From: Thermoanaerobaculia bacterium | GTDB lineage: Bacteria > Acidobacteriota > Thermoanaerobaculia > UBA5066 > Gp7-AA6 | Direction: 5' to 3' | Length of the DNA: 64,000 nt | Assembly: GCA_035498835.1 (NCBI GenBank) | Contig: DATJZU010000035.1 | Coordinates: forward strand, 8,625-72,624 | Shown here: in pieces, positions 463 to 23,327 of the stretch | Numbering within the stretch: position 1 is the first letter of the stretch | Layout of the letters: every line of letters begins with the position of its first letter | Translations under genes and position numbers: made by a program | Notes under the pieces: model-generated | What the model saw: the letters and a program-made list of their open reading frames with translations, nothing else | What the model was told of the DNA's origin: nothing | Databases searched by the model: none

Positions 463-2139
463 TCAGGGCCGCGGGCAGAGCTCTACCTCGACGAAATCGT
501 CGTCGATCGTGATCGTCCGGAGCGCGAGGCCCGCTTCCGACGCGAGCGCCGGGATCTGTCTCTGCAGGTCTTCGCGTTCGCCTTCCGGGCGGAGCGTGTG
601 CGGCCCCGTGAAGAGATTGCGATTCACGCTGAACGCCGTCTGGCACGCCAGCCCGACCGCGCCGAAGGTCGCCCGCAGCTCCGCGTAGAGCGCGGGGCTG
701 CGGAAGTCCATGAGGAAGAGAAAGCGGTGGTAGATCGCGGTGAAATGCCGATCTCCGCGAGAGAACTCGTACCGGTCGGCCGGCGGAGACTCCGAAACGC
801 GGCCAGCGGAGCGGCAGTCCCACTGGTAGAAGTCCATGAAGAGGGCGATGAAGTTCAGTTGATCGAAATGCACCACCCCGGTTCCGGGGCCGCCGAGATT
901 CTTCGCGAAGATGCCGGCGCGCACGTTCATCGGCTCGTCGCGAAAGATCTGCGCGTTTCTGTTGTGGAAAGCGGCGAGCCCGATCGCCGCCGCGCCCAGG
1001 GCCCCGAGCGCGAGACGTCCCGGCGGCGGAGCCATTCGCACGAGCCGATCGAAGGCGATGGCCCCCGCGAGGACGGCGAGGTAGAGGATCAGGATCTGGT
1101 GCCGGTGGGTTCCGCCGAAGGGATAGCGGCCGAGATAACCGAGCGCCGCGCCGATGGCGAGGAGAAGCGTCAGCACGAGTGCCGGAAATAGCCGTTCGAC
1201 GCCGCGTCCGGCCGGCGGCCGTTCCGCGGCCGGCGCGAGGATCGCCACCGCGAGAAACAGCGCGAGGACGGTGAGGGCCGCTCGCGGGGCGAGCGCGACC
1301 GGCGAGTAGAGGTTCGCCGTCGCGGCGAGCGTCCGCGCGAGGAACGCTCCCGCGCTCTCCGCGCCGGGTCGAAAGTAGAAACGGGGGAGCCCGCTCGCGG
1401 GCCCGCTCAACATCCGGATCCAGGAGCTCGCGAGGAAGCGGTACAGAGCCGCTCCGACGAGGGCCGGAGGGAGGAGCGTCAGGGCGTCCGCCGCGATACG
1501 GCGGGGCAGCGCGCCGAGGAGACGACGCCGGTAGTCCGGCCGGAGGATCGCGGCGAGAAGCGGCGCGAGCACGACGGCGATCAGGAAGAGGCCCGAGAGG
1601 TACTCGGTCATCAGCGCCAGCGACGCGCAGATCGCGAAGCCCGCGCGGCGTCCGAACGGCGGCGGTGCGTCCATCCGGAAGAGGTCGAGCGCGAAAAGGA
1701 ACGCGGCGAGCACGAAGGCCACGGCGAGCGTGAACCCTTCCACCTGGACGGAGAGCGCGATCGCCGTCGTCGAGAGCGCGATCGCGAGCGCGCCGAGGGC
1801 GCTCGCCGCCGGGACGCATCCCAGCCGGTCGAGGATGAGGCCCACGAGAATCACCGAGCCGACGCCGGCCGCGAGCGGGACGAGGCGGTAGGAGAGGAGC
1901 GAGCGGCTGACACGGTCGCAGGCCTTGAGCAGCAGGAGGAAGAGCGGCGGGTGCGCGATCGTCCCGAGCTCCTGGCGGAAGAAGCGCGCGGCGAAGAGAT
2001 GCCAGGCGCCATTGTGCGAGAGCGGGCGGTGGGCCGCGAGCCACAGCCGCGGGACGAGGGAGATCGCGGCGACTGCGAGGAGAAGGGTCGCCGGGGCGCG
2101 CCGCCCCGATTCGGAAGGGGAGTCCGGTCCGCCGCTCAT
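463..2139 (-). CDS. polytopic membrane glycosyltransferase, GT-C fold (ArnT/PMT-like, presumably polyprenyl-phosphate-sugar dependent) with ~170-aa C-terminal soluble domain
   Basis: This is the C-terminal 558 aa of the 1728-aa track ORF 463..5649, starting at the ATG at 2139 (MSGGPDSPSE...). It has ~11-13 hydrophobic helices, an RLW...AWHLFAARFF N-terminal loop typical of ArnT/PMT-type GT-C enzymes, and a hydrophilic C-terminal domain. Its start overlaps the stop of the upstream giant gene (ATGA at 2136-2139). Confidence 0.7.
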   Translation of the reverse strand: MSGGPDSPSESGRRAPATLLLAVAAISLVPRLWLAAHRPLSHNGAWHLFAARFFRQELGTIAHPPLFLLLLKACDRVSRSLLSYRLVPLAAGVGSVILVGLILDRLGCVPAASALGALAIALSTTAIALSVQVEGFTLAVAFVLAAFLFALDLFRMDAPPPFGRRAGFAICASLALMTEYLSGLFLIAVVLAPLLAAILRPDYRRRLLGALPRRIAADALTLLPPALVGAALYRFLASSWIRMLSGPASGLPRFYFRPGAESAGAFLARTLAATANLYSPVALAPRAALTVLALFLAVAILAPAAERPPAGRGVERLFPALVLTLLLAIGAALGYLGRYPFGGTHRHQILILYLAVLAGAIAFDRLVRMAPPPGRLALGALGAAAIGLAAFHNRNAQIFRDEPMNVRAGIFAKNLGGPGTGVVHFDQLNFIALFMDFYQWDCRSAGRVSESPPADRYEFSRGDRHFTAIYHRFLFLMDFRSPALYAELRATFGAVGLACQTAFSVNRNLFTGPHTLRPEGEREDLQRQIPALASEAGLALRTITIDDDFVEVELCPRP

Positions 2140-5100
2140 CCGGCCGGCGGCGTCGCGAGCCGGCAGTAGAAGAGCTCGGTGTTCCGGATGCCCTGCTCCG
2201 GGAAGTCGTCCTTCGTGTAGTCGACCGTGAACCCGAGCGTGGCGAGCTTGTCGTCGAGATCCGTTCCATAGGAGCGGTACGTGAGCGTACGCCCTTCCCC
2301 CGAGTTGGCGTCGCCGTGGTGCTCCTTCGCCATCAGATAGCGGTCGGACGACGGGTCCGCCGGGTCCACCACCTCGATGCGCGTCACCGTCAGCCGATCG
2401 CGCAAGTGCGGCACCGTGAAGATGTGAACGCCGCCGGGCCTGAGCACGCGGCGGATCTCGGAGTGCGCGCGCTCGTCGAGGCGCACTTGCTCGAGGACGT
2501 CGCTCGTCACGACGACGTCGAAAGACGCGTCGGGGAAGGTCAGCGCCTCCAGGTTCTGGTTCGTCGCGCCGCCGCCGAGGCGCTTGCCGCGCTTCTGCTT
2601 CGGGTCGAAGCGCGAGGTCGAGACGTCGATCCAGGAGCAGCGCGCGAGAAGGTCCGGGATCGGGTAGGCGTTGCCCTCGCCGTAGAAGGCGACCTGCGTG
2701 TCGTAAACGGCGAGCTTCCGCTTCGGCAACGCGTCGCCGAGTGCCGCGAGGTTGTCGGCCCGGGCGCCCGCGAGCTCCTCGGCCGCGCGGAGGAGACCGC
2801 GCGCGATCGAGCGGTAGCGGGACGTCGTCAGGCAGTGGGCGCAGGTCAGCGACTCGCGGAAGAGGAGCGGATCCGTGTAGTAGAAGCGCGTCCTCTCGCC
2901 GCAGACGTTGCACGTGCCCGAGAGCGAGGACATGCCGCGGAAGCGGGGATCGGTTGGTCCTGTCGCTTCCTTTGGCGGCGCCGGCACAGCCGGCGCAGAT
3001 GCTGCGGCCCGCGGCGCCGCCTTCGGCGCGCGCTCTCTCTTCTCCAGGGCCTCCAGCACCGTGTCCACGCGCGCCGACCATGAGTTCTCGCGGCCGACCT
3101 GACGCACCCGCTCCCGATACGCCGCGTCCTTTCCGCGCTCGCGCGCCGGGTCGAGCGCCGCCGCGAAGTCCTCCGCCGTTTGGACGATCGCGACCTCCGG
3201 GTACGCCATGCACTCGGGCATCGGCGTCGTGATCGTGGCCTTCCCGCCCGCGAAGTACTCGTAGAGCTTGAGCGGCGACGTGGCCTTCGTGATGTCGTTG
3301 ATCTTGAACGGAATCGTCGCGACGTCGAAGAGCCGCAGATACCCCGGCAGCGAGTGATAGTCGCGCGGGCCGAGCCAGAGGACGTTGGGGCATTTCAGGA
3401 CCGGCTGCCCGCGCAGGCTCTGGTCGTACATCGGGCCGATCAGGAGGAAGTTCCAGTCCGGCCGCGCGCGCGCGACCTTCTCGAGAAGCTCGTAATCGAA
3501 CCATTCGGCGAGCGCGCCGTAGTAGCCGGCGATCGGCTTGCCGGACTCGCGGAAGGCGCGCAGCTCCTTGTCCTCGGGCAGCGGCGCCTCGTCGTCGGCG
3601 AACCGCTCGAACTCGACGCCGTTCGGCACGCCGACGGCGTCCGGCCGCACGGCCAGCGCCTGCTCGTGAAGCTTCTTCGCGACGCTCGCCACGACCGTCG
3701 CTTCGGCGAGGCCGCGCGCGTGGTTCTTCTCGAGGAGCGCGCGGTCGTACGGGAACACCTCGAGGTCGTCGATCCAGTCGTACACGGACGCGGAGCCGGC
3801 GGGGTAGGCGTCCACCTTCTGCCAGTTGTAGGTGAACGCCCAGAGCAGCGGCTCCGGAAGCTGCTCGAGGAGGCCCTCCGGTCCGCGGAAGAGGAAGAGG
3901 TTCGGCTGGATCTCCTTGAAGCCGTTCACGTCGTCGTGCGCGTTCGAGCAGTCGAAGATCGCGACCCATCCGCGCCGCGCGAACGTGCGCGCGAGGTGAT
4001 GCGGCCGCTGGAAGAGCGCGATGCCCCAGCCGACCGACGGGAGGAACACGACCGCGCCCTCGCTCGCCGCGATGCGCGCGCGCACCGCGTCGAGCTGCTC
4101 CCGGTAGAAGCCCAGATCGGCGCGCTTCCAGACGTCCACGCCTTCGGCCTTCCAGGCCTCGCCCCACTTCTCCTCGTACTTCTTCCGGTTCTCCTCGAAG
4201 AGCGCGAGGTACTTCTTCTCGCCGAGCAGGCGGAACGACGCCTTCTGCCAGTGGTGCACGAACGCGTCGCGCGCGCAGCGGATCTCCCAGCCCTTCGCGC
4301 GGGCGCGGCGGTTGAAGTCGTCGTCCTCGAACATCCCGGTGCCGAAGCGCTCGTCGAGCGCGCCGACCGATTCGTACACCTCGCGCTTCATCGCGAGGCA
4401 GAACATCGCGAGCATCGGGATCGCGAAGACGTGGCCGTCGTTCTCGCGGACGAAGTCCTCGGCCCAGGCGGGCAGGTCCTCGACGCCTTCGTATCCGACC
4501 TCGACCTTCGCCTCGTTCGAGATGGCATTGGTGACGGGGCCGACGAGGCCGAGCTTCGGCTCCGCGGCGAGGTGACGGACGAGCGCCGAGAGCCAGCCGC
4601 GGGTCACGACGGTGTCGTTGTTGAGGAGGACGAGGTAGTCGCCGGTCGCGAGTACCAGCCCCTGGTTGTTGGCGGCGGCGAAGCCGCGGTTGTCGTCGTT
4701 GAGGACCACGCGCAGGTTCGCGTATCGCGACTCGGCTTCGCGCAGGTACTCGCGCGTGCCGTCCTGCGACGCGTTGTCCACCACGATGACCTCGAAATTC
4801 GGCCACTCGGTGCGGCCGTAGAGGCTCTCGAGGCAGAGCCGGTTGAGGGACAGGTTGTTGTACGTCACGACGACGATCGTGGCCTTCGCGAACGTCGCGG
4901 CCACCGCGGGCGCGAGCGCCTCGAACCGTCGCTCCCAGGAGTTCTCTTTCCCGAAGGCGTGCCGGCGCGCGACGAGCGCCGGGTCGTCTTCCGCGAGCGC
5001 TGCCGCGATCTCGCGCTCGAATTCCTCGGCGCGGTTGGCGAGCCGGACGAGAGGCGCCATCGGCGCGACCTCCGGAATTGGCACCGACACGATCGGCCGG

Positions 5101-7604
5101 CCCGCGGCGAGGATCTCGAAGGCCTTGACCGGGCTCGTGGCCTCGGTCAGAGGATTGCGCTTGAAGGGCAGGATGGCCACGTCCATCCGGGCGAGCCAGG
5201 AGGGGATTTCCGCGTACGGCTTCTCGCCCGGCAGCGAGACGTTCGGCAGCTTCGACAGTCGGCTCGTGTCGGCGGTATAGGTCGAGCCCACGAGCAGGAA
5301 GTCCCAGTCGGGCCGTCTTTCCGCGACGTCGGCCACGAGGTCGGAGTCGAACCAGTTGGCGATCGCCCCGTAGTATCCGACGACCGGCCGGGCCTGCCGA
5401 GCGCAAGGCCCGATCTCGAAGTGGCCGGGCTCGCAGGCGTTGGGCAGGAGGAGCACGTTCGCATTCGCCGCGCGGGCCCGCGCTTCGAGGAGGCCGGAAG
5501 ACGCGACGACCAGGTCGGCCGCGGCGAAGAGCTCGCGCTCGTCCTCGGCCATGTCGGGGCGGTTGGTCGTGAAGCCCGCGTGGTCGTCCATGCAATCGTA
5601 GATCACCGGCCAGGCCAGCTCCTCTCGGGCCTTCTGCGCGAGCGGCCACCAGAAAGGCAGCTGGACGACCAGGGCGGTCGCACCGAGCGAGAGGTCGCGG
5701 CGCATGGCGTCGAGGTCCGAGAAAAGCGCGTCGCGGGCGGCGGCGTCCATGGTCTGCCGGTAGACATTGAGCGCGGCGCCGCGGAGCGACACCTCCCAGA
5801 CGTTGTCGCGCTTGCGGCGGAGCTCGTACGGCGCGCCGCCCTCGCGGAACGTCTGCGCGACGTAGAAGACGCGGTGCCCGGCCGCGGCGAAGCGGGACAT
5901 CAACTGCTGCGGTCGCTGGAAGCGGAAGTCCCAGTCGATGATGGGCAGGCAGACGACGTCATGGCGGTTCTCGGCGGCGATCGGCGCCGGCAGCGGAACG
6001 TGGGCCGCGCGCGCCGTCCGGGCGGACGGCGCGGCCGGGGCCGCGGTCCGCGCGTCGGGGCGGGCGGCCGGAGCGCCGCCGCCGAAGAGACGCCGGAGCC
6101 GGCGGCGGAGGGACCAGTAGACCGACATGAGCTTCCAGTAGCGCGAGGTCTGGATCGACAGGATTTCGTTGCGGACCTCGGAGACCTGCTTCTGCAGGAA
6201 GGCCGCCTCGCGCTGGCCGCGCCGCGCCTCGTCCTCGGCGCGCTTCTCGGCGGCGCGCAGCGAGACCGAGAGCGACGCCGCCTCTCGCTCCTTCTCGGAG
6301 AGCCGGCCCGAGAGCGACTGCGCACGCCGCTCCGTCTCGCCGAGCCGCTGCACGAGCCCGCGCTCGATCGGGAATCGTGCGAGCGCCGTCCGGCGAAGCA
6401 GATCGACGATGCCGGCGGTCGCGGCCAGCGCCGGCGCCGCCCCGGACTCGAGCCGCTCGGCGGCGATCTCGGCCGTGCGCCGGGCGCTCTGCGCGAGCGT
6501 GCGGGCGCGCTCGGACAGGTGTTGCGCGTAGCGGCCCCGCTCCTCGAAGGCTTCGGCCAGGCGCGACGCGAGCCCGCCGGCGTCGATCGTTGCGAGCGGG
6601 AGCGCATAGTCGGGCTGGCCGATCTGGCGCATGAACCGCGAGACCTTCGGGTCGTATTCGAGGGAAACGAGCGGCACGCCCGCCGTCGCGGCGAACACGC
6701 CCGCGTGGAGGCGCATCGCAAGCACGAGGTCGCACTGTCCGATCGCCGCCGCGAGCCGCGCGGGGTCGCTTCCTCCCGGCAGGATGCGGGCGGCGTCGCC
6801 GTGGCGCATCCGCTCCCGGACGCGCGCCGCGACGGCCGCGTCGTTCTCCTCGGCGACGGACTCCTGCTGGAACGGCAGGAAGAGCACGGCGCCGCCGCGG
6901 CCCGCCGTTTCGAGGAAGCGATCCAGAGCGCCCGCGGCTGCGGCCTCCCATTGGGCGGGCTCGACGCCGACGTCCCAGTGGCGCAGCGCGACGCCGAGGA
7001 GCGGCCGTTCTTCCGGAATCGCCGGCAGCGGCTCCGGGGCCGCGTCCGCGCGCGGGGCAAACGCAAGCGCGAACGCCGGATCGGCCGTGACCTCGATGCG
7101 CTCGGCCGGCACTCCGAGAGCGACGAGCTCGTCGCGGGACTCGTCGTCGCGCACCGTGATCGTCGCGGCGGCGTCGCAGACGGCCTTCGTGAAATCCCGC
7201 CCGGGTGCCGTCTGGAGCGGTCCGACGCCGGCCGCGTAGATCATGAGCGGCTTTCCATGCAGGACCGCGAGCACGGCCGGCGCGGCGTAGTAGGAGAGGC
7301 CCCAGTGCCGGTCGGTCAGGATGGCGTCGGCGGGGAAGCCCCAGTAATCGTGGAAGATCCCGCCGCCGCCGAGCACGATGAGGTCGGAGCCGCGCGCGGC
7401 GTCTTCGAGGCCGAGCGGATCGCGCCAGAAGACGGTTTCGACGCCGTGGGCCGCCGCCGTCGCGTCGGGATTTCCCGAGACCACCGTGACCGCGGCCTCG
7501 GGCGCGGCCGCGCGCAGGTGCGCCAGGATCGAGGCGAGGATCGCCTCGTCTCCGGCGTTGCCAAAGCCGTAGTAGCCGGCGAGAAGGATGCGGCGCGAGG
7601 TCAC
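2136..7604 (-). CDS. giant multidomain glycopolymer synthase/terminator: polysaccharide pyruvyltransferase (CsaB/WcaK-like) + coiled coil + GT4-like + GT2 + GT4-like + Zn-ribbon + class I SAM methyltransferase (~1822 aa)
   Basis: Uninterrupted ORF (track 2136..7796). The likely start is the GTG at 7604 (alternative TTG at 7616), just before RRILLAGYYGFGNAGDEAILASIL, the conserved N-terminus of the PS_pyruv_trans family. Farther upstream would run into the divergent gene at 7780. Motifs seen: IIDWDFRFQRPQQL with an EATSPVKAFEILAAGRPIV EX7E-like signature (GT4/GT-B); VVVTYNN...VIVVDNASQDGT...DYLVLLNNDTVV (GT2/GT-A); a second GT4-like domain (FLPSVGWGIALFQRPHHL...TSPLKLYEYFAGGKATI); CNVCGERTRFYY...CAHCLTT (4-Cys ribbon); FDVVVTSDVLEQV...VLRPGGVHIFTVPH (methyltransferase type 11). 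A heptad-like segment ERRAQSLSGRLSEKEREAASLSVSLRAAEKRAEDEARRGQREAAFLQKQVSEVRNEILSIQT sits between the pyruvyltransferase and the first GT. Confidence 0.85.
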   Translation of the reverse strand: MTSRRILLAGYYGFGNAGDEAILASILAHLRAAAPEAAVTVVSGNPDATAAAHGVETVFWRDPLGLEDAARGSDLIVLGGGGIFHDYWGFPADAILTDRHWGLSYYAAPAVLAVLHGKPLMIYAAGVGPLQTAPGRDFTKAVCDAAATITVRDDESRDELVALGVPAERIEVTADPAFALAFAPRADAAPEPLPAIPEERPLLGVALRHWDVGVEPAQWEAAAAGALDRFLETAGRGGAVLFLPFQQESVAEENDAAVAARVRERMRHGDAARILPGGSDPARLAAAIGQCDLVLAMRLHAGVFAATAGVPLVSLEYDPKVSRFMRQIGQPDYALPLATIDAGGLASRLAEAFEERGRYAQHLSERARTLAQSARRTAEIAAERLESGAAPALAATAGIVDLLRRTALARFPIERGLVQRLGETERRAQSLSGRLSEKEREAASLSVSLRAAEKRAEDEARRGQREAAFLQKQVSEVRNEILSIQTSRYWKLMSVYWSLRRRLRRLFGGGAPAARPDARTAAPAAPSARTARAAHVPLPAPIAAENRHDVVCLPIIDWDFRFQRPQQLMSRFAAAGHRVFYVAQTFREGGAPYELRRKRDNVWEVSLRGAALNVYRQTMDAAARDALFSDLDAMRRDLSLGATALVVQLPFWWPLAQKAREELAWPVIYDCMDDHAGFTTNRPDMAEDERELFAAADLVVASSGLLEARARAANANVLLLPNACEPGHFEIGPCARQARPVVGYYGAIANWFDSDLVADVAERRPDWDFLLVGSTYTADTSRLSKLPNVSLPGEKPYAEIPSWLARMDVAILPFKRNPLTEATSPVKAFEILAAGRPIVSVPIPEVAPMAPLVRLANRAEEFEREIAAALAEDDPALVARRHAFGKENSWERRFEALAPAVAATFAKATIVVVTYNNLSLNRLCLESLYGRTEWPNFEVIVVDNASQDGTREYLREAESRYANLRVVLNDDNRGFAAANNQGLVLATGDYLVLLNNDTVVTRGWLSALVRHLAAEPKLGLVGPVTNAISNEAKVEVGYEGVEDLPAWAEDFVRENDGHVFAIPMLAMFCLAMKREVYESVGALDERFGTGMFEDDDFNRRARAKGWEIRCARDAFVHHWQKASFRLLGEKKYLALFEENRKKYEEKWGEAWKAEGVDVWKRADLGFYREQLDAVRARIAASEGAVVFLPSVGWGIALFQRPHHLARTFARRGWVAIFDCSNAHDDVNGFKEIQPNLFLFRGPEGLLEQLPEPLLWAFTYNWQKVDAYPAGSASVYDWIDDLEVFPYDRALLEKNHARGLAEATVVASVAKKLHEQALAVRPDAVGVPNGVEFERFADDEAPLPEDKELRAFRESGKPIAGYYGALAEWFDYELLEKVARARPDWNFLLIGPMYDQSLRGQPVLKCPNVLWLGPRDYHSLPGYLRLFDVATIPFKINDITKATSPLKLYEYFAGGKATITTPMPECMAYPEVAIVQTAEDFAAALDPARERGKDAAYRERVRQVGRENSWSARVDTVLEALEKRERAPKAAPRAAASAPAVPAPPKEATGPTDPRFRGMSSLSGTCNVCGERTRFYYTDPLLFRESLTCAHCLTTSRYRSIARGLLRAAEELAGARADNLAALGDALPKRKLAVYDTQVAFYGEGNAYPIPDLLARCSWIDVSTSRFDPKQKRGKRLGGGATNQNLEALTFPDASFDVVVTSDVLEQVRLDERAHSEIRRVLRPGGVHIFTVPHLRDRLTVTRIEVVDPADPSSDRYLMAKEHHGDANSGEGRTLTYRSYGTDLDDKLATLGFTVDYTKDDFPEQGIRNTELFYCRLATPPAG
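2139..2915 (-). other. domain: CxxC...CxxC zinc-ribbon + class I SAM-dependent methyltransferase
   Basis: CNVCGERTRFYY...CAHCLTT, then the methyltransferase motifs FDVVVTSDVLEQV and VLRPGGVHIFTVPH. Confidence 0.65.
3042..4064 (-). other. domain: GT4-like glycosyltransferase B
   Basis: Second GT-B-like domain with a C-terminal TSPLKLYEYFAGGKATI motif. Confidence 0.6.
4152..4895 (-). other. domain: GT2 (GT-A fold) glycosyltransferase
   Basis: VVVTYNN / DNAS.DGT / NNDTVV / ED(D) motifs. Paralogous to the C-domain of the gene at 19481..21529. Confidence 0.7.
5052..5966 (-). other. domain: GT4-like glycosyltransferase A
   Basis: DWDFRFQRPQQL N-terminal motif and EX7E-like C-terminal motif. Paralogous to the N-domain of the gene at 19481..21529. 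Confidence 0.65.
6087..6359 (-). other. domain: predicted coiled-coil spacer (~90 aa)
   Basis: Charged heptad-like sequence rich in E/R/K/A/L/S without Pro/Gly, followed by a Pro/Ala-rich linker. Confidence 0.5.
6477..7604 (-). other. domain: polysaccharide pyruvyltransferase (residues ~65-440 of track ORF)
   Basis: GYYGFGNAGDE N-terminal motif plus ~375 aa with CsaB/WcaK-like features. Coordinates come from residue counting. Confidence 0.7.
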
Positions 7605-7779
7605 GTTCGCGCGCAAGTATATGGAGTGGGAGGACGTCTCGTGCCGCGCGGCCGCTTGTCGGTTCCGGCGCGAGCGTCTACAATTCCGGTAGCTCCCTGT
7701 CGAAAATGACGATCGCGCGCGCGATTTTCCGCACGAGCTCGGCCGCCGTGCGGGACCGCGTCCCAAGGAGGTCACGGCC

Positions 7780-8619: not shown

Positions 8620-8668
8620 CGATCGCTTCCGATCGAAGGCGAGCCGGCCCGGCGTAGACTCCTCCCCC

Positions 8669-11656: not shown

Positions 11657-11678
11657 GAGCATGTAGACTCGCGCCGCT

Positions 11679-12719: not shown

Positions 12720-12792
12720 AGGCCGATTTCGGGGGGATCCGGCGGGTTACAATTTTCTCCTCGGGCCGGAACGCCCAAACAAAGGACAGATC

Positions 12793-14826: not shown

Positions 14827-14861
14827 GGGAAGTGAGGGAGGAGGTCCTCGAGAGGCCCAGA

Positions 14862-16937
14862 ATGACATCCGCACCGCCCGCCCCGCGGCGGGGAACAACG
14901 AGAGCCGGAGCCCGGCTCTTCTTGATCCTCGTCGCCGCTTCTTTGAGCGCGCTCCCCGCGCCCGCGGCCACGCTCGGCGGACCCGTGCCGCCGCCGCTGC
15001 CGCTCTTCCCGCAATCCAACTGGTGGAACCTGAACATCTCCGCCGCTCCGCTCGACCCGGGCTCGGCGTCGTACATCACGTTCCTCGGCGCCGGCGGCGT
15101 GACCGGCGCGCATCCGGATTTCGGCGGCAACAACGGGCCGGTCGCGATCTACGGCTTCCCGTATTGCGTCGTCCCGGGAAGCCAGGCGAAGAAGGCGGTC
15201 ACGTTCCAGTACTGGGACGAGAGCGACGGCGTCGACTACGGCACGCACGCCGGCCTGCCGTTCTATCCGATCCCCGACGAGGCGATCACGCAGAACCACT
15301 GGATCGAGGGCGGCCAGCCCGGCAACGCCACCGTCAGCGGCGATCGCCACATGCTCATCCTCGACCAGGACAACAAGATGCTTTACGAGCTCTTCGCGCT
15401 CAAGTGGGACACGACGAACTCGCGGTGGAAGGCGGGCTCGGGTGCCGCGTTCGACCTCAAGAAGAACGGCCGCCGTCCCGACACGTGGACGTCCGCCGAT
15501 GCCGCGGGGCTCGCGATCCTGCCCGGACTGGTGCGATATGACGAGGTGTACGGTCCCGGCGAGATCGGGCACGCCTTCCGCGTGACGGTGCGCGACTCGG
15601 ACGGCTACGTCTATCCCGCGTCGCACGACGCCGGCTCGCAGGCGGGCGCTCTGCCGATGGGCGCGCGGCTCCGTCTCAAAGCGTCGAAGGACATCTCGGG
15701 CTACGACCCCGCCGTGCAGAAGATCTTCCGCGCGATGAAGAAGTACGGCTTGATCGTGGCCGACAACGGGACCGACCTCTACGTCAGCGGGAGCTGGGAC
15801 ACGCGGTGGGACAACGACATCCTGAATCCCGCCTTCGGCGATCTCGCGCCGTCGGACTTCGAGGTCGTCACGCTGGGATACATGCCCCAGGTCGCCGCGG
15901 GCCTCGCCGTCGACGCGCACTCCGGGACGGGAACGACGTCCGACGCCAACGGCGTCCTCGAGCCCGGCGAGACCGTGCTGGTCGAGCCGTCGTGGACCTA
16001 CCAGGGGAATTCGTCGAAGTCTCTGACCGGCGCTGCCTCGGCGCTCGCGGGACCGGCCGGCGCTTCCTATACGCTCGCCGACGCGGCGGCGTCCTACGGG
16101 ACGGTCCCGGCCGTCGCAACGGGAGACGGCGCGACGGTCTCCTGCACGGGCGCCGGCGGCAATTGCTATCGCATCGCGGTCTCGGCGCCGGCGGTCCGGC
16201 CGGCGGCGCACTGGGACGCGACCGTCACCGAGACGCTGTCGACGAGCGGCGTCTGGAAGTGGACGCTCCACGTGGGCGATAGCTTCGCCGACGTGCCGCG
16301 CACGAACCCCTTCTACGCGAAGATCGAGACGCTCTTCCACCACGGTGTCACGTCGGGCTGCGCCGCGGGCCTCTACTGTCCCGACGACGCGGTCGTGCGC
16401 TATCAGATGGCGATCTTCCTCGCGAACACGCTCGCCCGCGGCGGTTCGAACGTGCCGGCCTCCGGCTCGTGGAACGGGCAGGCCTACAACTGCAAGGCGG
16501 GAGGCGTCTCGATCTTTCTCGACATCGCGCCGACGGACGCCTTCTGCAAGCACGCGCACTACCTGGCGGTCCAGAACGTGACGCTCGGATGCTCCGGGAA
16601 CTTCTTCTGCCCGAGCGCCGCCGTGTCGCGTCTCGAGATGGCGGGATTCGTCGCGCGGGAGATGGTCGCGCCGGGCGGCGGCGGCGCGGTCCCGGCGGCC
16701 TACGGCCCCGATCCCGTCACCGGACGTTCCTACAGCTGCAGCACGACCGCCCCGAACATCCATTTCACCGACGTGCCCTCGACCGACCCGTACTGCAAGC
16801 TCGCCCACTACCTCTGGGCGCGCGGCGTGATCGCCGGCTGCACGCCGACCGACTACTGCGCGGGCTCCCCCGTCACGCGCGGCGAGATGTCGAAGTTTCT
16901 TTCGAACGCGGCGGGGCTGACTCTGTACGGTTCGTAG
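14862..16937 (+). CDS. secreted protein of unknown N-terminal family with three C-terminal SLH repeats
   Basis: ATG preceded by GGGAGGAGG. Signal peptide MTSAPPAPRRGTTRAGARLFLILVAASLSALPAPAA. C-terminal repeats FADVPRTNPFYAKIETLFHHGVTSGCAAGLYCPDDAVVRYQMAIFL / FLDIAPTDAFCKHAHYLAVQNVTLGCSGNFFCPSAAVSRLEMAGFV / FTDVPSTDPYCKLAHYLWARGVIAGCTPTDYCAGSPVTRGEMSKFL. Confidence 0.8.
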   Translation: MTSAPPAPRRGTTRAGARLFLILVAASLSALPAPAATLGGPVPPPLPLFPQSNWWNLNISAAPLDPGSASYITFLGAGGVTGAHPDFGGNNGPVAIYGFPYCVVPGSQAKKAVTFQYWDESDGVDYGTHAGLPFYPIPDEAITQNHWIEGGQPGNATVSGDRHMLILDQDNKMLYELFALKWDTTNSRWKAGSGAAFDLKKNGRRPDTWTSADAAGLAILPGLVRYDEVYGPGEIGHAFRVTVRDSDGYVYPASHDAGSQAGALPMGARLRLKASKDISGYDPAVQKIFRAMKKYGLIVADNGTDLYVSGSWDTRWDNDILNPAFGDLAPSDFEVVTLGYMPQVAAGLAVDAHSGTGTTSDANGVLEPGETVLVEPSWTYQGNSSKSLTGAASALAGPAGASYTLADAAASYGTVPAVATGDGATVSCTGAGGNCYRIAVSAPAVRPAAHWDATVTETLSTSGVWKWTLHVGDSFADVPRTNPFYAKIETLFHHGVTSGCAAGLYCPDDAVVRYQMAIFLANTLARGGSNVPASGSWNGQAYNCKAGGVSIFLDIAPTDAFCKHAHYLAVQNVTLGCSGNFFCPSAAVSRLEMAGFVAREMVAPGGGGAVPAAYGPDPVTGRSYSCSTTAPNIHFTDVPSTDPYCKLAHYLWARGVIAGCTPTDYCAGSPVTRGEMSKFLSNAAGLTLYGS

Positions 16938-16974
16938 CGGCGCGATCCGCCGTGTGCCGGACCCCGCCGATTCG

Positions 16975-17799
16975 CTACCACTTCTCCCAGACCGAGAGGT
17001 CCTGATAGCGGTTGAGGCCGTTCTCGCGGAAGTGCCGCAGGCCGAAGCAGCGGCCCCAGGTCGCGACGAGGTACTCGCGCGAGTGGAACGCCGAATCGTC
17101 GTTGAATCGGCCGCCGCCCGCGGCAAAGACGAAACCGCGCCGGGCGAGGGCCTGGCGGTCATCCTCCGAAAGGTCGGGCCGGCTCCAGGAGAGCCCGGGA
17201 GCGTGGGTCGAGGCGATCAGGAGGCCGCCCGGGCGCATCACGCGATGGAGCTCGGCGAGCCAGGCCAGCTGGCGCTCCTCGGACAGGTGGGTGAAGACCG
17301 ACCCGGCGTAGACGACGTCCATGTGCCCCGGCGGCAGTGCGGTCGGCGGATCGGCCGCGACGCGCGCGTATCGGCCTCGGACGTGCGACGCCGTCCATTG
17401 GAGCGCCTCCTCGTCCACGTCGATTCCCCAGAGCTCGCCGATCGGAACGGTCCGTTCCAGATGGCGCGCGACGCGGCCGCAGCCGCAGCCGAAGTCGAGC
17501 CAGCGCGCGTAGCGGCTCGCCGGTTGCCGGCTCGCTTCGAAGACGTCGCGGATGTTTTCCGACGCTTCCCGGCCGGCCGAGAGAAAGGTCGCGCGCGAGC
17601 TCGTTCCCGAGACGCGGTAGCGGAGCCGGGGCGGCGGCAACGGGTCTTCGTGGAATCGGTCGAGGATGTCCGGAACGAGGTCGCGAAGACGCACCGGTGT
17701 TTCGCGAAGCAGGAGCCGGCCGCGCCGGCGCCAGTCGAGCGGCACACGCCGCCGTGCGATCGCCCGGATTCGGCCGCTATCGGCCGCGTTCGTGCTCAT
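16975..17799 (-). CDS. class I SAM-dependent methyltransferase
   Basis: Motifs LDFGCGCGRVARHL, VVYAGSVFTHL and VMRPGGLL. The start ATG at 17799 overlaps the wzt stop (ATGA), so it is the last gene of the wecB-GT-wzm-wzt operon. Confidence 0.75.
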   Translation of the reverse strand: MSTNAADSGRIRAIARRRVPLDWRRRGRLLLRETPVRLRDLVPDILDRFHEDPLPPPRLRYRVSGTSSRATFLSAGREASENIRDVFEASRQPASRYARWLDFGCGCGRVARHLERTVPIGELWGIDVDEEALQWTASHVRGRYARVAADPPTALPPGHMDVVYAGSVFTHLSEERQLAWLAELHRVMRPGGLLIASTHAPGLSWSRPDLSEDDRQALARRGFVFAAGGGRFNDDSAFHSREYLVATWGRCFGLRHFRENGLNRYQDLSVWEKW

Positions 17800-18584
17800 G
17801 AGGACGGCGGTCGAGCGGCGGGGCTCGGCAGCGGCGGAGCGTCTCCGCCTCCCACGGACCACTCGTGGTACGCCTCGGCCACTTCAGCGGCGGGGCCCTG
17901 GCTCACGACGAGGCCCTCGTGGATCCAGACCGCGCGGTTGCAGATCTCCTGGATCAGGCGCGTCGAGTGGGAGACGAAGACGATCGTCTTGCCGCTCCGG
18001 CGGAACTCGTTCATCCGCGCCTGGCACTTCAGCTGGAAGCGCTCGTCGCCGACGGCGAGCGCCTCGTCGATGAGGAGGACGTCGGGGTCGACGTCGGTCG
18101 CGACGGAGAAGGCGAGACGCGCGGCCATGCCCGTCGAGAACGTTCGCAGCGGCGCGTCCACGAACTCCTCGAGCTCCGCGAACGCGACGATTCGGTCCAG
18201 GCGGCGCTTCATCTCCGCCCGCGAGAACCCGAGGAGCGCCCCCTGCAGCATGACGTTCTCGCGTCCCGTCAGCTCGCCGTGGAGGCCGAGACCGAGCTCG
18301 AGGATCGGCGCGACGCGGCCGGCGACGATGACCCGGCCTCCCGTGGGCGGGATGATGCGCCCGATCACGCGCAGCGCCGTGCTCTTGCCGGCGCCGTTGC
18401 GGCCCACGATGCCGAGCGTCTCTCCGGTTCCGACCTCGAACGACACGCCGCGGAGAGCTTCGAACTGATCGAAGAAGATCCGCCGCTTCAGCTTGCGGAT
18501 CGCGTATTCCTTGATCGAGCGGATGCGCTCGCGCGGGACGAGGTACCCGACGTGAACGCCTTCGAGGCGGACCGCGACGCTCAT
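17796..18584 (-). CDS. wzt: polysaccharide ABC exporter ATP-binding protein (Wzt/TagH/KpsT-like), short form without C-terminal carbohydrate-binding domain
   Basis: Walker A GRNGAGKST, signature FSTGMAARL, Walker B LLIDEALAVGD. Only 262 aa. Confidence 0.9.
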   Translation of the reverse strand: MSVAVRLEGVHVGYLVPRERIRSIKEYAIRKLKRRIFFDQFEALRGVSFEVGTGETLGIVGRNGAGKSTALRVIGRIIPPTGGRVIVAGRVAPILELGLGLHGELTGRENVMLQGALLGFSRAEMKRRLDRIVAFAELEEFVDAPLRTFSTGMAARLAFSVATDVDPDVLLIDEALAVGDERFQLKCQARMNEFRRSGKTIVFVSHSTRLIQEICNRAVWIHEGLVVSQGPAAEVAEAYHEWSVGGGDAPPLPSPAARPPSS

Positions 18585-18599
18585 CCGGCGTTCAACCCG

Positions 18600-19445
18600 T
18601 CAGCCCATCAGCGCGAAGGAATCCCGCCGGCGACAGAAGAAGAGCCAGCCGGCCAGGAAGCAGACCACGGCGACCGCGAGCGACGGGAGGAAGACGTCGA
18701 GCGGCGGCAGCTCGCCGTCGTAGATCGGTTTCCGGAAGGTCTGCACGAGGTAGTACATCGGGTTCAACCAGATCGGGACGCGGTACCGAACGGGCACGAT
18801 CGAGATGTGGTACACGACCGGAGTCAGGTAGAACCAGACCTGCACGAACACGGTGTACATCTCGCGCACGTCGGTGAAGCGCGAGGCGAGCGTGAAGAGG
18901 AAGAAGCCGATTCCCGACGCGAACAGCGCGCCCATCAGGATCGAGACGGGCAGGAAGATCCACGTGGCGTGGAACGGGAACTTCGTCACCGCGAGGATCC
19001 CGAGCAGCGGGACGAGCGACAGCACGAGATTCACGAGCGCGCCGCCGATGGCCGCCGCGACGAAGACCGACCGCGGCACGAACGTCCGCTTCGCGATGGC
19101 GTTGGCGTCCTGTGTTTGGAACGCCGCCGCCGACGTGCTCTGAGAGAAGAAGTTCCAGAACAGGAATCCCGTCATGAAGTAGACGGGATAGTTCGCGATG
19201 GACGTCTTCAGGAGCGCCGAGAAGACGAGCGTCAACGTCGCCATGTTGAGGAGCGGTCCGAGCATGGTCCACGTCAGTCCGAGGATCGATCGTTTGTAGC
19301 GGACCTTGATGTCGCGCACGACGAGCTCGTGCACGAGGCCGCGGTACGCCCAGAGGGCGCGCGCCTCCTCGAGGGCGGCCGGCCCTCCCCGCGCGGAGTC
19401 GTAGATGGGCAACGCGGCCCGGACCGGCGGGGCGGCGGCGCTCAC
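18600..19445 (-). CDS. wzm: ABC-2 type polysaccharide exporter permease (Wzm/TagG/KpsM-like)
   Basis: Six-TM ABC-2 permease with the N-terminal LVVRDIKVRYKRSILGLTWTML motif. Start taken as the GTG at 19445 (281 aa). The track ORF runs on to 20306 through low-complexity sequence, so the true start could differ by a few codons. Confidence 0.8.
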   Translation of the reverse strand: MSAAAPPVRAALPIYDSARGGPAALEEARALWAYRGLVHELVVRDIKVRYKRSILGLTWTMLGPLLNMATLTLVFSALLKTSIANYPVYFMTGFLFWNFFSQSTSAAAFQTQDANAIAKRTFVPRSVFVAAAIGGALVNLVLSLVPLLGILAVTKFPFHATWIFLPVSILMGALFASGIGFFLFTLASRFTDVREMYTVFVQVWFYLTPVVYHISIVPVRYRVPIWLNPMYYLVQTFRKPIYDGELPPLDVFLPSLAVAVVCFLAGWLFFCRRRDSFALMG

Positions 19446-19480
19446 GCCGCGCGCTCTCGAGAGCGATGCATGGGCGAAGT

Positions 19481-21529
19481 CTATCGTCGCGCGCCGGGGC
19501 CGAGCTCCGGCTCCGCGGGCGCCGATCCCCACTTGCGCGCGTACCGCTCGCGATTCTCGCGGTAGATCCGGAGGTATTCCTCGTCGGGCAGGCGGCGGAA
19601 GCTGCCGCGGCCCCAGTGATGGACGAAGCTGTCGCGGGCGACCGCGAGCCGGAAGCCCTTCTCCCGCGCGCGCCGGCACCAGTCGTCGTCCTCGAACATC
19701 CCGACCGCGAACCGCTCGTCGAGCGGCCCGACCTGCTCGAAGACGCGGCGCCGGGTGAGCACGCAGAAGAAGGCGAGCATCGGGATCGGCTCGGATCGCC
19801 CAGAGTTGCCGCGGGTGAATTCCCGCGCCCAGGGCTCCAGGTCCTCGGGATCGCGATAGCCGACCGGCACTTTCGCCTCGTTGGCGATCTCGTTCGTCGA
19901 GGGCCCGACGAGCCCGAGCGACGGGTCCCGATCGAGGTGGCGGACGAGCGCCGAGAGCCAGCCGCGCGTGACGACCGTGTCGTTGTTCAAGAAGCAGAGC
20001 AGGTCGCCCCGGGCCGCGGCCGCCCCGGCGTTCGCCGCGGGCGCGAAGCCGCGGTTGTCGGGGAACGCGAGGAGCCGGAAGCCGCCGCCGCGCCGCGACG
20101 CCTCGGCCTCGAGGAGCTCGCGCGTGCCGTCCGTCGATCCGTTGTCGACGAAGACGAGCTCGACGCGGGGCCAGTCCGTGCGGCGGTCGAGCGAGGCGAG
20201 GCAGAGCTCCGTCAGGGGCCGGCCGCCGTGGGTGACGACGACGACCGAGACGAGCGGGTAGAGGGCGCCGACGGCGCCGTCGAGCGCCTCGGCGCGATGG
20301 TCCCACGTGTTGCGGGCGGCGAAGGCCCGGCGTCGGGCGGCGTTTTCCGGCGCGCGCGCCGCCTCGTCGGCGATGGCCGCGGCGAACTCCTGCATGGTCG
20401 CGGCCAGGCGGACGACTCCCGCGTCGGCGTGCGGCCGGAGCGCCTCGAGCGGCGTCGCGACGACCGGGCGGCCGGCGGCGGCCGCCTCGTAGAGCTTCAC
20501 GGGATCGACGGCGTGCGTGAGCGGCGACGGCCGGAACGGGATGATCTCCACGTCGAATCGGGACCGGAGCGCCGGGAGCTCCGCGTACGGGCGCTCGCCG
20601 TGAAAGGCGACGTTCGGCAGGCCCTTGGCGAGGTCCTCCCGCCCGCCCTCGCGCCCGCCGACGATCTCGAAGCGCCAGTCGGGCCGCGTCCGCGCGAGCC
20701 CCTCGAAGAGCTCCGCGTCGAACCAGTCGTCCACCGCGCCGACGTAGCCGACGGTGAGGGGCCTGCCGCGTCTCGCGGGCTCCGACGCCGGCGCTCCGAC
20801 CAGCGCGGCGTCCGCGGCGTTGGGAAGGAGGAGCGTGTTCGGGTTCTCCCGCGCGAGGCGCGCGCGCAGGACCTCGGAGGTCGCCGTGACGAGGTCGGCG
20901 CGCCGGACGAGCTCCGGCTCGGCCTGTCCGAGCAATCCGGGACGGTTCGCGCCGAAGGCCTCGTGCTCGTCGAGGCAGTCGTACACGACCTTCCAGCCGA
21001 AGCGGTCGGCCAGAAGCATCGCGAGCGGCGTCCAGAAGGGCGTCTGCACGACGATCGCGGTCTCGAAGAGACCGTAGGCGTCACGCGCCGCCGAAATCGA
21101 GGCGAACGCCTCTTCGAGCGGCCGCCCTTCGAGCCGCCGGTCGGCCGGATCCTCGCGGCGGACTCCGTCGATCGGGAGGAGCAGGACGCCGGGAGCCGCG
21201 CCCGTCGGCGTCTCGGGCTCGCCGCGTCCCCGGAGCGCCCCGTAGAAGACGCGTCGCCCGCGGCGCGCGAGCGCCTCGGCGAGTTGCTGCGGCCGCTGGC
21301 GGCGATAGGACCATGCGATGACCGGCAGGAAGAGGACGTCGGGGCGGCCGGGCAGCGCTTCGTTCGGATCGAAGGCGAAACGCGGGATGTCGACATCGGG
21401 CTTGTGGATGCCGAGGAGATGCTCGGGGGCGACTCGCCGGCGAAGCGCCCGGCGCCAGGACAGCGGCAGGAGGCGGCGGCCGAAGGCGTAGAGACGCCCG
21501 CGGAAACCCTTCTCCCACTCCGGTCTCAC
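19481..21529 (-). CDS. bifunctional glycosyltransferase: N-terminal GT4-like domain + C-terminal GT2 domain (682 aa)
   Basis: GTG start overlapping the wecB stop (GTGA). The N-domain [25 protein letters not shown] parallels IIDWDFRFQRPQQL of the giant protein. The C-domain has VVVVTHGG...[11 protein letters not shown]...[14 protein letters not shown]...FEDDDW (GT2). Confidence 0.85.
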
Positions 21530-22686
21530 GGCGCGCGGCGGGCCGCTCCGGACGCCGCGGCCGGGACCGGCGCGAAGCTCTTGTACGGGCGGCCGGCGAG
21601 GACGTCAGCGATCCGGTCGCTGGCGCGTCCGTCGCCGTACGGGTTGCCGCCCTCCGCCATGCGGCGGCGCGCGGCGGGATCCGAGAGCAGCCGCGACGCC
21701 TCGGCGACGATCCGATCTTCGTCGGTGCCCACGAGCCGCGCGAGCCCCGCCTCGACGCCTTCGGGCCGCTCCGTCTTCTCCCGCAGGACGAGCACGGGCT
21801 TTCCGAAGGTCGGCGCCTCCTCCTGGATGCCGCCGGAGTCCGTCAGCGCGAAGCGGCAGCGGCGCAGCAGACGGACGAGCCCGCGGTAGTCGAGCGGCTC
21901 GAGCAGCTCGACGTTGGGCAGGCCTTCGTTCGCGCGCACGGCGGCGAGCACGCTGGGGTTGGGGTGGACGACGTGCAGGAAACGCGTCTGCGGGAACGCC
22001 CGCGCCAGGCGCGCGATCGCGCGTACGATCCGGGCGAGGGGCTCGCCGAAGCTTTCGCGGCGGTGCGCGGTGATGAGGACGGTATCGGTCTCCGGCTCCG
22101 CGCCCTCGCGCGCGGCGATCTCGAGAAGCGCGTCCACGACCGTGTTCCCCGTCCGATGGATCCGATCGGCCGGCACGCCCTCGGCCTCGAGGGCCGCGGC
22201 GGCGCGCCGCGTGGGCGCGAAATAGACGTCGGCAACGAGGTCGACGACGCGGCGATTCATCTCCTCCGGGAAGGGGTGCTGGAAATCCCCGGTGCGCAAC
22301 CCGGCCTCGACGTGCCCGACGCGCACGCGCCGGTGGAACGCGGCGATCGCGGCGCACATGGCGGTCGTCGTATCGCCCTGTACGATCAGCCAGTCGGGGG
22401 AGCGCTCCGCGAGGAGCGGATCGAGCGCCGCGAAGACCCGGGAGGCCACCTCGTTGGGCGACTGGCCCGGCCGCATCAGGTCGAGATCGACGTCGGGCGC
22501 GAGGTCGAACACCTCCAGGACCTGATCGAGCATCTCCCGGTGCTGTGCCGTCGCGCAGAGTGTCGCTTCGAAGCGGTCCGGCTCGCGGCGCAGCCGCCGG
22601 ACGAGCGGCGCGAGCTTGATGGCTTCGGGCCGCGTGCCGGCCACGAGAAGGACGCGCGCCGGGGCGGACGAGGCGGCCGGAGTCAC
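21526..22686 (-). CDS. wecB: UDP-N-acetylglucosamine 2-epimerase (non-hydrolysing)
   Basis: [40 protein letters not shown] are diagnostic WecB/MnaA motifs. GTG start. Confidence 0.9.
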
Positions 22687-23240: not shown

Positions 23241-23327
23241 CTGCCGTCCTCCGGTCTCTGGAGCAACACTACCCGCGGCGGAGGAGCCGCGGGGGGGCTT
23301 TTATCCAGCTGTTAAAGTCTCTTCGGA

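Follow-up and report, generated by a model that had tools for sequence, protein, structure and literature searches.

The 64-kb stretch of DNA analysed here (the window) carries, at positions 463-22686, a locus of twelve coding genes that probably makes a pyruvylated glycan by an ABC-transporter-dependent route, together with secreted S-layer homology (SLH) proteins that would bind this glycan. The window is about 70% GC, and coding genes were recognised among the open reading frames (ORFs) by a third-position GC (GC3) of 0.82-0.93; the gene coordinates proposed in an initial annotation each correspond to an ORF with such a coding signature (GC3 0.82-0.92). The host belongs to a lineage of uncultured, Thermoanaerobaculia-like soil Acidobacteriota represented by metagenome-assembled genomes (MAGs). 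Acidobacteriota are a diderm phylum placed in the Gracilicutes, which agrees with the earlier guess that the organism was probably diderm.

The genes fall into three operons. Operon A, on the minus strand, consists of the gene for an 1822-amino-acid (aa) synthase (7604→2136) followed by that for a 558-aa membrane protein (2139→463), the two being joined by an ATGA stop/start overlap (2136-2139). Operon B lies divergently on the plus strand (7780-8619, 8669-11656, 11679-12719, 12793-14826, and 14862-16937), and the 175-bp intergenic region between the two (7605-7779) is presumed to be a promoter region shared by the synthase operon and the SLH/glycosyltransferase (GT) operon. Operon C, on the minus strand and convergent with operon B, encodes the epimerase WecB (22686→21526), a GT4-GT2 enzyme (21529→19481), the permease Wzm (19445→18600), the ATPase Wzt (18584→17796), and a methyltransferase. 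The wecB and GT4-GT2 genes overlap by GTGA and the Wzt stop codon overlaps the methyltransferase start by ATGA; the methyltransferase ORF spans 16975-17862, with its true start probably at this overlap, at 17799.

The synthase (2136-7604, minus strand) is encoded by a single ORF with a GC3 of 0.92 and combines, in order, a CsaB-type pyruvyltransferase, a helical spacer, a TuaH-like GT4, a GT2, a second TuaH-like GT4, and a Zn-ribbon with an S-adenosylmethionine (SAM)-dependent methyltransferase. The N-terminal domain (aa 1-385; 6450-7604, minus strand), in which the initial annotation had recognised a pyruvyltransferase signature, matches Pfam PS_pyruv_trans (PF04230) over the full model (positions 1-280 of 280; 3.3e-35, 122.8 bits against a gathering threshold of 25.3). 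Within this superfamily it is closest to the ketal-pyruvyltransferase CsaB: NCBIfam TIGR03609 (S_layer_CsaB) gives 7.2e-61 and 206.1 bits, 7 bits below the cut-off of 213.1, and the WcaK score is 51 bits, a quarter of that. An alignment of 18 family members shows Y12, F14, R152, R208, R298, H300, and K320 to be invariant, and by motif and spacing these seven fit the residues found to be critical by mutagenesis of Paenibacillus alvei CsaB, namely Y14, F16, R148, R207, R306, H308, and K328 (PMC10435577). A PDB sequence search with the synthase returned no solved CsaB-like chain, only relatives of the GT2 and methyltransferase domains.

The domain is followed by a heptad-like helical spacer of about 75 residues (aa ~416-490; 6084-6359, minus strand), a stretch that matches the coiled-coil family Filament of Pfam (8.7e-4) and whose heptad score exceeds that of shuffled sequences in a crude test. 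Next come a conserved basic and aromatic amphipathic helix (SRYWKLMSVYWSLRRRLRRLF, aa 487-507) and a Pro/Ala linker leading to the first GT module; across 114 homologues the linker length spans 51 to 675 aa.

The GT modules occupy 3015-5972 (minus strand), with the TuaH-like GT4 modules at aa ~545-900 and ~1165-1530 and the GT2 module at ~905-1150 between them. They are recognised by Pfam as Glyco_trans_1_4 (two stretches, 1.6e-18) and Glycos_transf_2 (1.8e-27), NCBIfam TuaH matches in two stretches (3.7e-51), and the PDB relative of the GT2 module is chondroitin synthase (2z87, 6.5e-12). At the C-terminus (2139-2747, minus strand) lie a Cys4 motif and a class I SAM methyltransferase (Methyltransf_11, 1e-10; Methyltransf_25). 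The earlier view that the whole polymerase and terminator reside in one polypeptide goes too far: the locus also encodes a stand-alone GT4 and the 682-aa TuaH-like GT4-GT2 enzyme of operon C (19481-21529, minus strand; Pfam), which is a paralogue of synthase aa 543-1150 (47% identity over 619 aa, E 2e-164).

Three proteins of operon B were held in the initial annotation to be secreted and to end in SLH-like domains, and two of these pass the Pfam SLH (PF00395) cut-off of 20.8 bits. The protein at 7780-8619 (plus strand, 279 aa) combines an N-terminal domain of a novel kind with a single SLH repeat at the C-terminus (9.2e-10, 38.8 bits). The one at 12793-14826 (plus strand, 677 aa) bears out the proposal that one SLH protein is a sugar dehydrogenase propeller of the pyrroloquinoline quinone (PQQ) type: it combines a PQQ-type glucose/sorbosone dehydrogenase domain (GSDH, 6.8e-34), a choice-of-anchor Z PGGG repeat at aa 405-491 (CoaZ_rpt_PGGG, NF058597, 1.5e-30), and three SLH repeats (7.5e-19, 67.9 bits), and in the PDB sequence search its C-terminus matches the SLH region of Sap (6bt4/3pyw, 8e-6). 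The third (14862-16937, plus strand, 691 aa) has an uncharacterised N-terminal domain with no PDB sequence match and three divergent SLH repeats that score under the Pfam cut-off (0.0072, 16.7 bits); its C-terminal 220 aa match the SLH region of SbsB (4aq1, 1.2e-5), which supports the assignment.

As read from the sequences, all three have plausible Sec signal peptides and carry no recognisable tag for export across the outer membrane, so that the periplasm is their default location. In a six-frame scan, all SLH-type ORFs of the window fell within the locus, at 7.7-17 kb, and the remaining 47 kb had none. An OmpM-like tether was considered and, for this window, rejected: the SLH repeats lie C-terminal to the GSDH propeller or to uncharacterised soluble domains, and no porin family was matched.

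The repeats retain the residues expected to contact pyruvate and differ elsewhere. Gly29 (in GIIxG) and Arg43 (in TRAE) contact pyruvate in SpaA and Sap (PMC6081394), and both are kept in seven of seven window repeats, as G-[IV]-[TI]-x-G and [TSV]-R-x-x; the TRAE-equivalent arginine, which the earlier reader had singled out, is therefore present throughout. Trp13, which stacks on the ring of N-acetylmannosamine (ManNAc), is kept in none of the seven, Pro or Ala followed by Phe, Tyr, Leu, or Cys standing in its place, and an adjacent aromatic residue may substitute for it. The loop G-Y-x-D-G-x-F-x-P is replaced by a Cys pair, G-C-x(4-5)-C-P, which presumably forms a disulfide. A set of three repeats, the usual pseudo-trimer, is found in the two larger proteins, and the single-repeat protein would have to oligomerise to form an SLH trimer. 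In close relatives, this small gene is present as five to six tandem, diverged paralogues (L004, 5460-9850; L081, 3810-9583); those of L004 occupy the place of the window's 995-aa gene. The segment beside the synthase gene is thus variable, which suggests diversifying surface proteins.

Immediately upstream of wecB, and on the same strand, is a gene for a plastocyanin/azurin-type cupredoxin (22731-23300, minus strand; Copper-bind, 2.5e-7). Its product could be the electron acceptor of the SLH-anchored PQQ-type dehydrogenase, or could be unrelated.

Operon C would supply sugar and export. WecB (21526-22686, minus strand) is a non-hydrolysing UDP-GlcNAc 2-epimerase of the WecB/MnaA type (Epimerase_2, 4.8e-107; TIGR00236, 419.7 bits against a cut-off of 210.15). 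The Wzm-type ABC-2 permease (18600-19445, minus strand; ABC2_membrane, 6.5e-18) and the 262-aa Wzt-type ABC ATPase (17796-18584, minus strand; ABC_tran, 4.1e-19) are encoded 15 bp apart, between GT and methyltransferase genes. In Pfam searches the window Wzt is a bare nucleotide-binding domain that lacks a glycan-binding module of the Wzt_C or SLH kind at its C-terminus. The stand-alone SAM methyltransferase (16975-17799, minus strand) matches Methyltransf_25 (1.8e-14), and the 346-aa GT4 of operon B (11679-12719, plus strand) matches Glycos_transf_1 (7.4e-12) and Glyco_transf_4 (3e-9). All of these had been named correctly beforehand, and the families expected from that reading (PS_pyruv_trans, SLH, GTs, ABC2_membrane, and Epimerase_2) were all matched.

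What the earlier gene list missed is the nature of the 995-aa protein at 8669-11656 (plus strand), which is predicted to be cytoplasmic and places a CE4-type polysaccharide deacetylase barrel and beta-sandwich domains inside a TesB-like double hotdog. The hotdog halves derive from its N- and C-termini, and the core has no Pfam family. There are at least 127 homologues, the few with taxon labels being from Acidobacteriota; in some Bryobacteraceae contigs (P0218/P0077, P0216/L057) the family co-occurs with CsaB fusions.

The 558-aa polytopic membrane protein encoded after the synthase (463-2139, minus strand) had been called a GT-C membrane transferase. Profile searches lend this no support (no Pfam or NCBIfam family, and no curated GT-C family at E<0.01; PMT at E=0.83), but the predicted structure does. 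An AlphaFold (AF2) model (pLDDT 77.7, pTM 0.80) places a GT-C fold before a C-terminal alpha/beta domain, predicted to be periplasmic, and ranks 1-16 of the Foldseek search against the PDB are all GT-C enzymes (probability 0.93-1.00; TM 0.27-0.49, which is modest), led by Pmt4 (9i5k, E 6.6e-4, TM 0.44/0.49) and followed by AftA, AftB, Pmt1/2, EmbA/B/C, AglB, and ArnT. Since every one of these matches is a GT-C enzyme, we regard the predicted fold assignment as sound despite the modest TM scores. Among 5.8 billion proteins, 16 homologues were found, and PF02366 (PMT) is matched by one of them. An alignment of 12 homologues shows E57 and D75 to be invariant, which makes them candidates for the catalytic acidic residue that GT-C enzymes have in the first periplasmic loop. 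The orthologue is present in three of 80 related loci, the closest relatives only. In several lineages, a membrane protein of some GT-C-related Pfam family adjoins the CsaB fusion gene (directly downstream in three of four cases), the family differing by lineage: the window's own, PMT_2, YfhO, or DUF7657. The enzyme may add side chains in the periplasm or transfer the chain en bloc to an acceptor.

CsaB-glycosyltransferase fusions are a large, unstudied family. More than 160 synthase homologues were found in the protein collection, all from metagenomes or MAGs, and at least 547 genomes among the GTDB species representatives contain relatives (tblastn, E ≤ 1e-3). The closest homologue (95% identical) comes from the uncultured Acidobacteriota MAG MFD00822.bin.2.174, and other relatives carry the labels Thermoanaerobaculia, Bryobacterales, Terriglobia, Holophagales, Anaerolineae/Chloroflexota, Acidimicrobiia, Pirellulales, and Desulfohalobiaceae. 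A core of CsaB, spacer, GT4-like, and GT2 (~1150-1300 aa) is conserved; some relatives have in addition the second GT4 and the methyltransferase domain, the latter being limited to the nearest relatives and to part of the family (13 of 80 loci). One should note that in a 95%-identical relative (L004, 9650-15482) the synthase gene is broken into four overlapping frames, probably by indel errors in the MAG assembly; the window ORF is intact.

Gene neighbourhoods were compared for the best 80 of the at least 547 relatives (±10 kb, 1.45 Mb in total, all from metagenomes or MAGs), which are mainly from Acidobacteriota, Chloroflexota, and Acidimicrobiia and mostly encode CsaB-GT fusions. The seven window repeats served to build a hidden Markov model (HMM), with which six-frame ORFs were scanned. 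The initial annotation had proposed that SLH and csaB genes should co-occur around homologues, and they do: 53 of the 80 loci have SLH ORFs (108 in all) no more than 10 kb from the fusion gene, against none of 80 control loci of similar GC (1.09 Mb, same HMM, anchored in a metagenome scan on homologues of the window's Kgd-type 2-oxoglutarate dehydrogenase), a contrast that overstates the enrichment because the control is not lineage-matched. More persuasive than this count is the gene order across phyla. Genes for Wzm-Wzt, TuaH-like GTs, the CsaB fusion, and SLH proteins are direct neighbours in Acidobacteriota (L017), Anaerolineae (L020 and L067), Acidimicrobiia (L034), Desulfohalobiaceae (L078), and Chloroflexi (L080), making four phyla in total. 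The SLH repeats in these neighbourhoods are attached to TIG proteins, reprolysin and M10 metalloproteases, S8 subtilase, and BNR/SBBP proteins (Pfam).

In some relatives, the SLH domain is fused to the transporter itself. The Wzt ATPase of locus L163 (6334-7569, the same as L017 8488-9948; 411 aa) ends in SLH repeats (Pfam SLH, 1.6e-16). When the window Wzt was searched against 1.84 billion cluster representatives, three further clusters with a C-terminal SLH domain were found among the best 150 matches (P0310, 100 bits; P0316, 56; P0313, 22). These fusions, among which P0328 scores 60 bits, represent at least three clusters at 50% identity, and the SLH repeats occupy the position at which other Wzt matches bear the Wzt_C glycan-binding module. 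In two of four contexts (L163; L167, 1901-3238), the Wzt-SLH gene shares an operon with a CsaB-GT fusion; the P0310 operon includes Wzm, a GT4-GT4-GT2 enzyme, a methyltransferase, and a CsaB-GT4-methyltransferase fusion, and in L169 a gene for Wzy_C (WaaL-type) adjoins Wzm. The Wzt-borne repeats are canonical and mostly free of Cys, unlike the exported Cys-pair repeats, as expected of a cytoplasmic domain.

It is the Wzt module that, in the O9a and O12 paradigms, recognises the cap at the chain end and licenses export (PMC10629545, PMC11231755). An SLH domain in the same position implies that the glycan of these relatives bears its SLH ligand in the cytoplasm before export, probably at the terminus, and the analogy suggests that there the pyruvate tag is read before the chain leaves the cell. 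This evidence bears on the family and not directly on the window locus, for which termination-coupled export is not indicated, as its Wzt has neither extension. In our literature search, which lay outside a 2019 survey of terminators and Wzt modules, we found no publication pairing Wzt with SLH in the relevant sense, and none pairing Acidobacteriota with "S-layer homology".

Profile searches of every coding ORF of the window gave no match to LCP, TagO/WecA, WbaP, TagA (GT26), or WaaL/Wzy_C families, which upholds the earlier remark that LCP ligase, TagO, and TagA are lacking; this statement covers the 64 kb only. A pathway of the Firmicutes TagO/TagA/LCP type was accordingly rejected within the window, none of its defining families being matched. 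Contrary to the earlier description, the locus is not self-contained: it encodes neither a priming transferase nor, apart from the GT-C enzyme as a possible candidate, a recognisable ligase. Pfam and NCBIfam scans identified only unrelated housekeeping genes in the rest of the window. Among these is a 2-oxoglutarate dehydrogenase E1 to which an E2-like acyltransferase domain is fused (56799-60440, plus strand), found here in an Acidobacteriota-like genome; the Kgd/OdhA-type E1-E2 fusion is best known from Actinobacteria. A stretch at 44000-48300 has a strongly negative AT skew (-0.1 to -0.2) and contains a 585-aa ORF with high second-position GC (44848-46605, minus strand), followed by several short ORFs of high GC3; neither tandem repeats nor Pfam matches were found in it.

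Taken together, these observations make it probable that the locus directs ABC-transporter-dependent synthesis of a pyruvylated, ManNAc-containing polymer that serves as ligand for the co-encoded SLH proteins. This had been the central proposal of the initial annotation, and each computational test agrees with it. The glycopolymer would be assembled on the cytoplasmic face of the inner membrane. WecB would provide UDP-ManNAc, and the chain would be built by the TuaH-like GT4 and GT2 modules of the synthase, the 682-aa paralogue, and the stand-alone GT4, the last two probably making a primer or adaptor region or a second type of repeat. The chain might then be trimmed or re-acylated by the deacetylase/hotdog protein, and methylated. 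The CsaB domain would transfer pyruvate from phosphoenolpyruvate to form a 4,6-ketal, most probably on ManNAc. After export through Wzm/Wzt, the pyruvyl-sugar would be a non-covalent dock for the PQQ-type sugar dehydrogenase and the two uncharacterised SLH proteins. On the periplasmic face, the GT-C enzyme would add a sugar borne on lipid phosphate or pass the finished chain to an acceptor; peptidoglycan, lipid A-core, a lipid, or a protein are all candidates.

Several points weigh against this reading. None of a TagA-type ManNAc transferase, a primer, an LCP ligase, and WaaL was found in the window, so that ManNAc incorporation and the attachment site are unsupported. The window's own Wzt bears neither an SLH nor a carbohydrate-binding module (CBM) extension, the synthase spacer is short and falls below the length of known rulers, and the two methyltransferases are possible alternative terminators. 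P. alvei CsaB pyruvylates every repeat on a lipid-linked disaccharide (PMC6030368, PMC6801904). On the side of the neighbourhood survey, the SLH HMM, being built from the window's own repeats, is biased towards the Cys type, the control anchors are only 44-59% identical to the window protein, and SLH ORFs are spread evenly across the 10-kb flanks with no peak beside the fusion gene; the contrast with the control hence proves the specificity of the HMM and a regional association, not a calibrated enrichment. Some family members (L164 and L166) have no SLH or ABC genes nearby.

Where the pyruvate sits is a separate matter. It could be a non-reducing-end cap that stops elongation, as in the WbdD and WbbB systems, or a decoration of each repeat, and we put the two at roughly even odds. 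A pyruvyltransferase can act as a terminator in an ABC-transporter pathway, as WbbZ does in capping and prematurely terminating K. pneumoniae O1 chains (PMC10629545), and in known systems the terminator lies distally on a coiled coil, after which come an amphipathic helix and the polymerase (PMC11231755). Capping is favoured because the helical spacer and amphipathic helix would hold the CsaB domain away from the GT modules in the same way, possibly as a ruler; the balance is no better than even, given so short a spacer, two methyltransferases that could be the terminators instead, and a P. alvei CsaB that acts on each repeat.

The best-surviving rival, which we consider possible but doubtful, holds that pyruvate is placed on every ManNAc-containing repeat, as in P. 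alvei, that one of the two methyltransferases caps the chain, as do WbdD of E. coli O8/O9a and Geobacillus WsaE, and that the helical segment serves only for oligomerisation or membrane association. It gains from the methyltransferase domain that ends the synthase, from the second methyltransferase, translationally coupled to Wzt, from the shortness of the spacer, and from the action of P. alvei CsaB on each lipid-linked disaccharide (PMC6801904). Yet the family core is CsaB, spacer, GT4, and GT2, with the methyltransferase domain seen in just 13 of the 80 loci, and the Wzt-SLH fusions fit a terminal pyruvylated residue best. Even in P. alvei the SLH domain of SpaA is reported to bind the terminal pyruvylated residue (PMC8942822).

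An extension of capping would give one mark two uses: the pyruvate cap would end growth, license export through Wzt-SLH in the relatives, and then dock SLH exoenzymes. We offer this tentatively, and by itself it seems less likely than the synthesis of an SLH ligand as such. If true, SLH would be a general reader of pyruvyl-glycans that also works inside the cell, and Acidobacteriota, on the Gracilicutes side, would possess a complete CsaB/SLH display independent of OmpM-type tethering.

It is less likely again that the polymer is a lipopolysaccharide (LPS) O-antigen or another outer-surface glycan with its ligase encoded elsewhere, the SLH proteins binding at the surface or being mere neighbours. 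The host phylum is diderm, Wzm/Wzt with a terminator borne on a coiled coil is a hallmark of ABC-dependent O-antigen assembly (PMC11231755), the related Wzt-SLH locus L169 has its Wzy_C gene beside Wzm, and LCP ligase was not found in the window. WaaL/Wzy_C was not found there either, however, the SLH proteins have Sec signals only and so default to the periplasm, and the established SLH ligands are peptidoglycan-linked polymers (PMC6081394). The term "cell-wall glycopolymer" used in the initial annotation is accordingly unproven, a glycan linked to LPS or protein being also possible.

Protein glycosylation is improbable. Here the PMT-like GT-C enzyme would move a lipid-linked glycan onto co-encoded secreted proteins to give an S-layer-type glycoprotein, in the manner of Geobacillus slg. 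The best structural matches of the 463-2139 product are protein O-mannosyltransferases, with the oligosaccharyltransferase AglB also matched, one of its homologues matches Pfam PMT, and the five to six tandem paralogues of the small SLH protein in relatives are typical of abundant surface proteins. Against this, the enzymes ArnT, Aft, and Emb, which have lipid or polysaccharide acceptors, were matched as well, the GT-C orthologue is restricted to three of the 80 loci while the link between CsaB and SLH is broad, and no S-layer lattice domain was recognised. That SLH and glycan genes are neighbours by chance or for unrelated reasons, the product being an ordinary exopolysaccharide, is very improbable: the even spread of SLH ORFs across the flanks, the stand-alone occurrence of some CsaB-fusion genes, and the control that is not lineage-matched would allow it, but SLH ORFs occur in 53 of 80 loci against none of the 80 controls, all three window SLH ORFs are inside the locus, the association is repeated across four phyla, and in relatives SLH is fused to the pathway's own ABC ATPase.

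The distribution of the family also matters. A survey of 1093 genomes described CsaB/SLH as "practically absent" among Gracilicutes and as having been lost in Chloroflexi (bioRxiv 10.1101/2021.05.31.446380); the CsaB relatives in at least 547 genomes, mainly Acidobacteriota, Chloroflexota, and Acidimicrobiia among the best 80, contrast with this and bear on scenarios that tie SLH/CsaB to an ancestral outer-membrane tether of Terrabacteria. In P. alvei neither a Wzx/Wzy nor an ABC export route is supported for the SLH ligand (PMC6801904), and CsaB-fusion loci would be an explicit, recurrent ABC-transporter solution to its export. Pyruvate-based chain-length control has been put forward as an unvalidated candidate in Burkholderia and Pseudomonas (PMC10629545); the CsaB-spacer-polymerase fusion and the Wzt-SLH proteins of relatives provide systems in which pyruvate-based termination and length control can be tested. 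The nature of the clients (PQQ sugar dehydrogenase, proteases, TIG, and BNR proteins) suggests that soil Acidobacteriota, an abundant group, retain degradative and redox enzymes in the envelope through SLH.

With CsaB/SLH anchoring to pyruvylated secondary cell wall polymer in B. anthracis and P. alvei, and with outer-membrane tethering in Thermus and cyanobacteria, the locus shares a TIGR03609-like CsaB, a WecB/MnaA epimerase for ManNAc, SLH triplets that keep Gly29 and Arg43, and the chromosomal linkage of csaB and SLH genes. It differs in that CsaB is a domain of an 1822-aa multi-GT synthase and not a stand-alone enzyme, in that export is by Wzm/Wzt and TagO, TagA, and LCP were not found nearby, in SLH repeats that have a Cys pair and lack both the G-Y-x-D-G-x-F-x-P loop and Trp13, and in clients that are soluble enzymes instead of OmpM-type porins or S-layer lattice proteins. 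The slg cluster of Geobacillus stearothermophilus has in common with the locus Wzm/Wzt, a multi-domain methyltransferase-glycosyltransferase, and a surface-protein context, and includes an oligosaccharyltransferase. Its glycan is methyl-capped and reaches the protein through a Wzy_C-type transferase, and, unlike the locus, the cluster is not known to encode a CsaB domain.

The synthase most resembles WbbB of K. pneumoniae O12 and WbdD/WbdA of E. coli O9a in layout: an N-terminal candidate terminator, a helical spacer, an amphipathic helix, and polymerising GTs, with terminator and GT modules fused in one polypeptide and Wzm/Wzt in the same locus. Here, the cap would be ketal-pyruvate and not Kdo, methyl, or phosphomethyl; the synthase has no sequence homology to GT99 or to the WbdD kinase, its spacer is much shorter, and the window Wzt lacks the CBM through which the O9a and O12 systems link capping with export. 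The locus also resembles K. pneumoniae O1b, where a cytoplasmic pyruvyltransferase (WbbZ) acts on an ABC-exported glycan whose transporter has no CBM and where pyruvate caps the non-reducing end and halts polymerisation in vitro (PMC10629545). Unlike the CsaB domain of the synthase, WbbZ is a stand-alone enzyme without a coiled coil that diversifies the chain rather than measuring it, and no SLH readers are known there.

The individual parts (CsaB/SLH anchoring, Wzm/Wzt export, and the terminator-spacer-polymerase architecture) are therefore known. As far as the literature was searched, CsaB as a module of a polymerase polypeptide, an explicit ABC route for an SLH ligand, CsaB/SLH in Acidobacteriota and Chloroflexota, and soluble enzymes as SLH clients are undescribed. 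The most striking lead is the Wzt-SLH fusions of the relatives.

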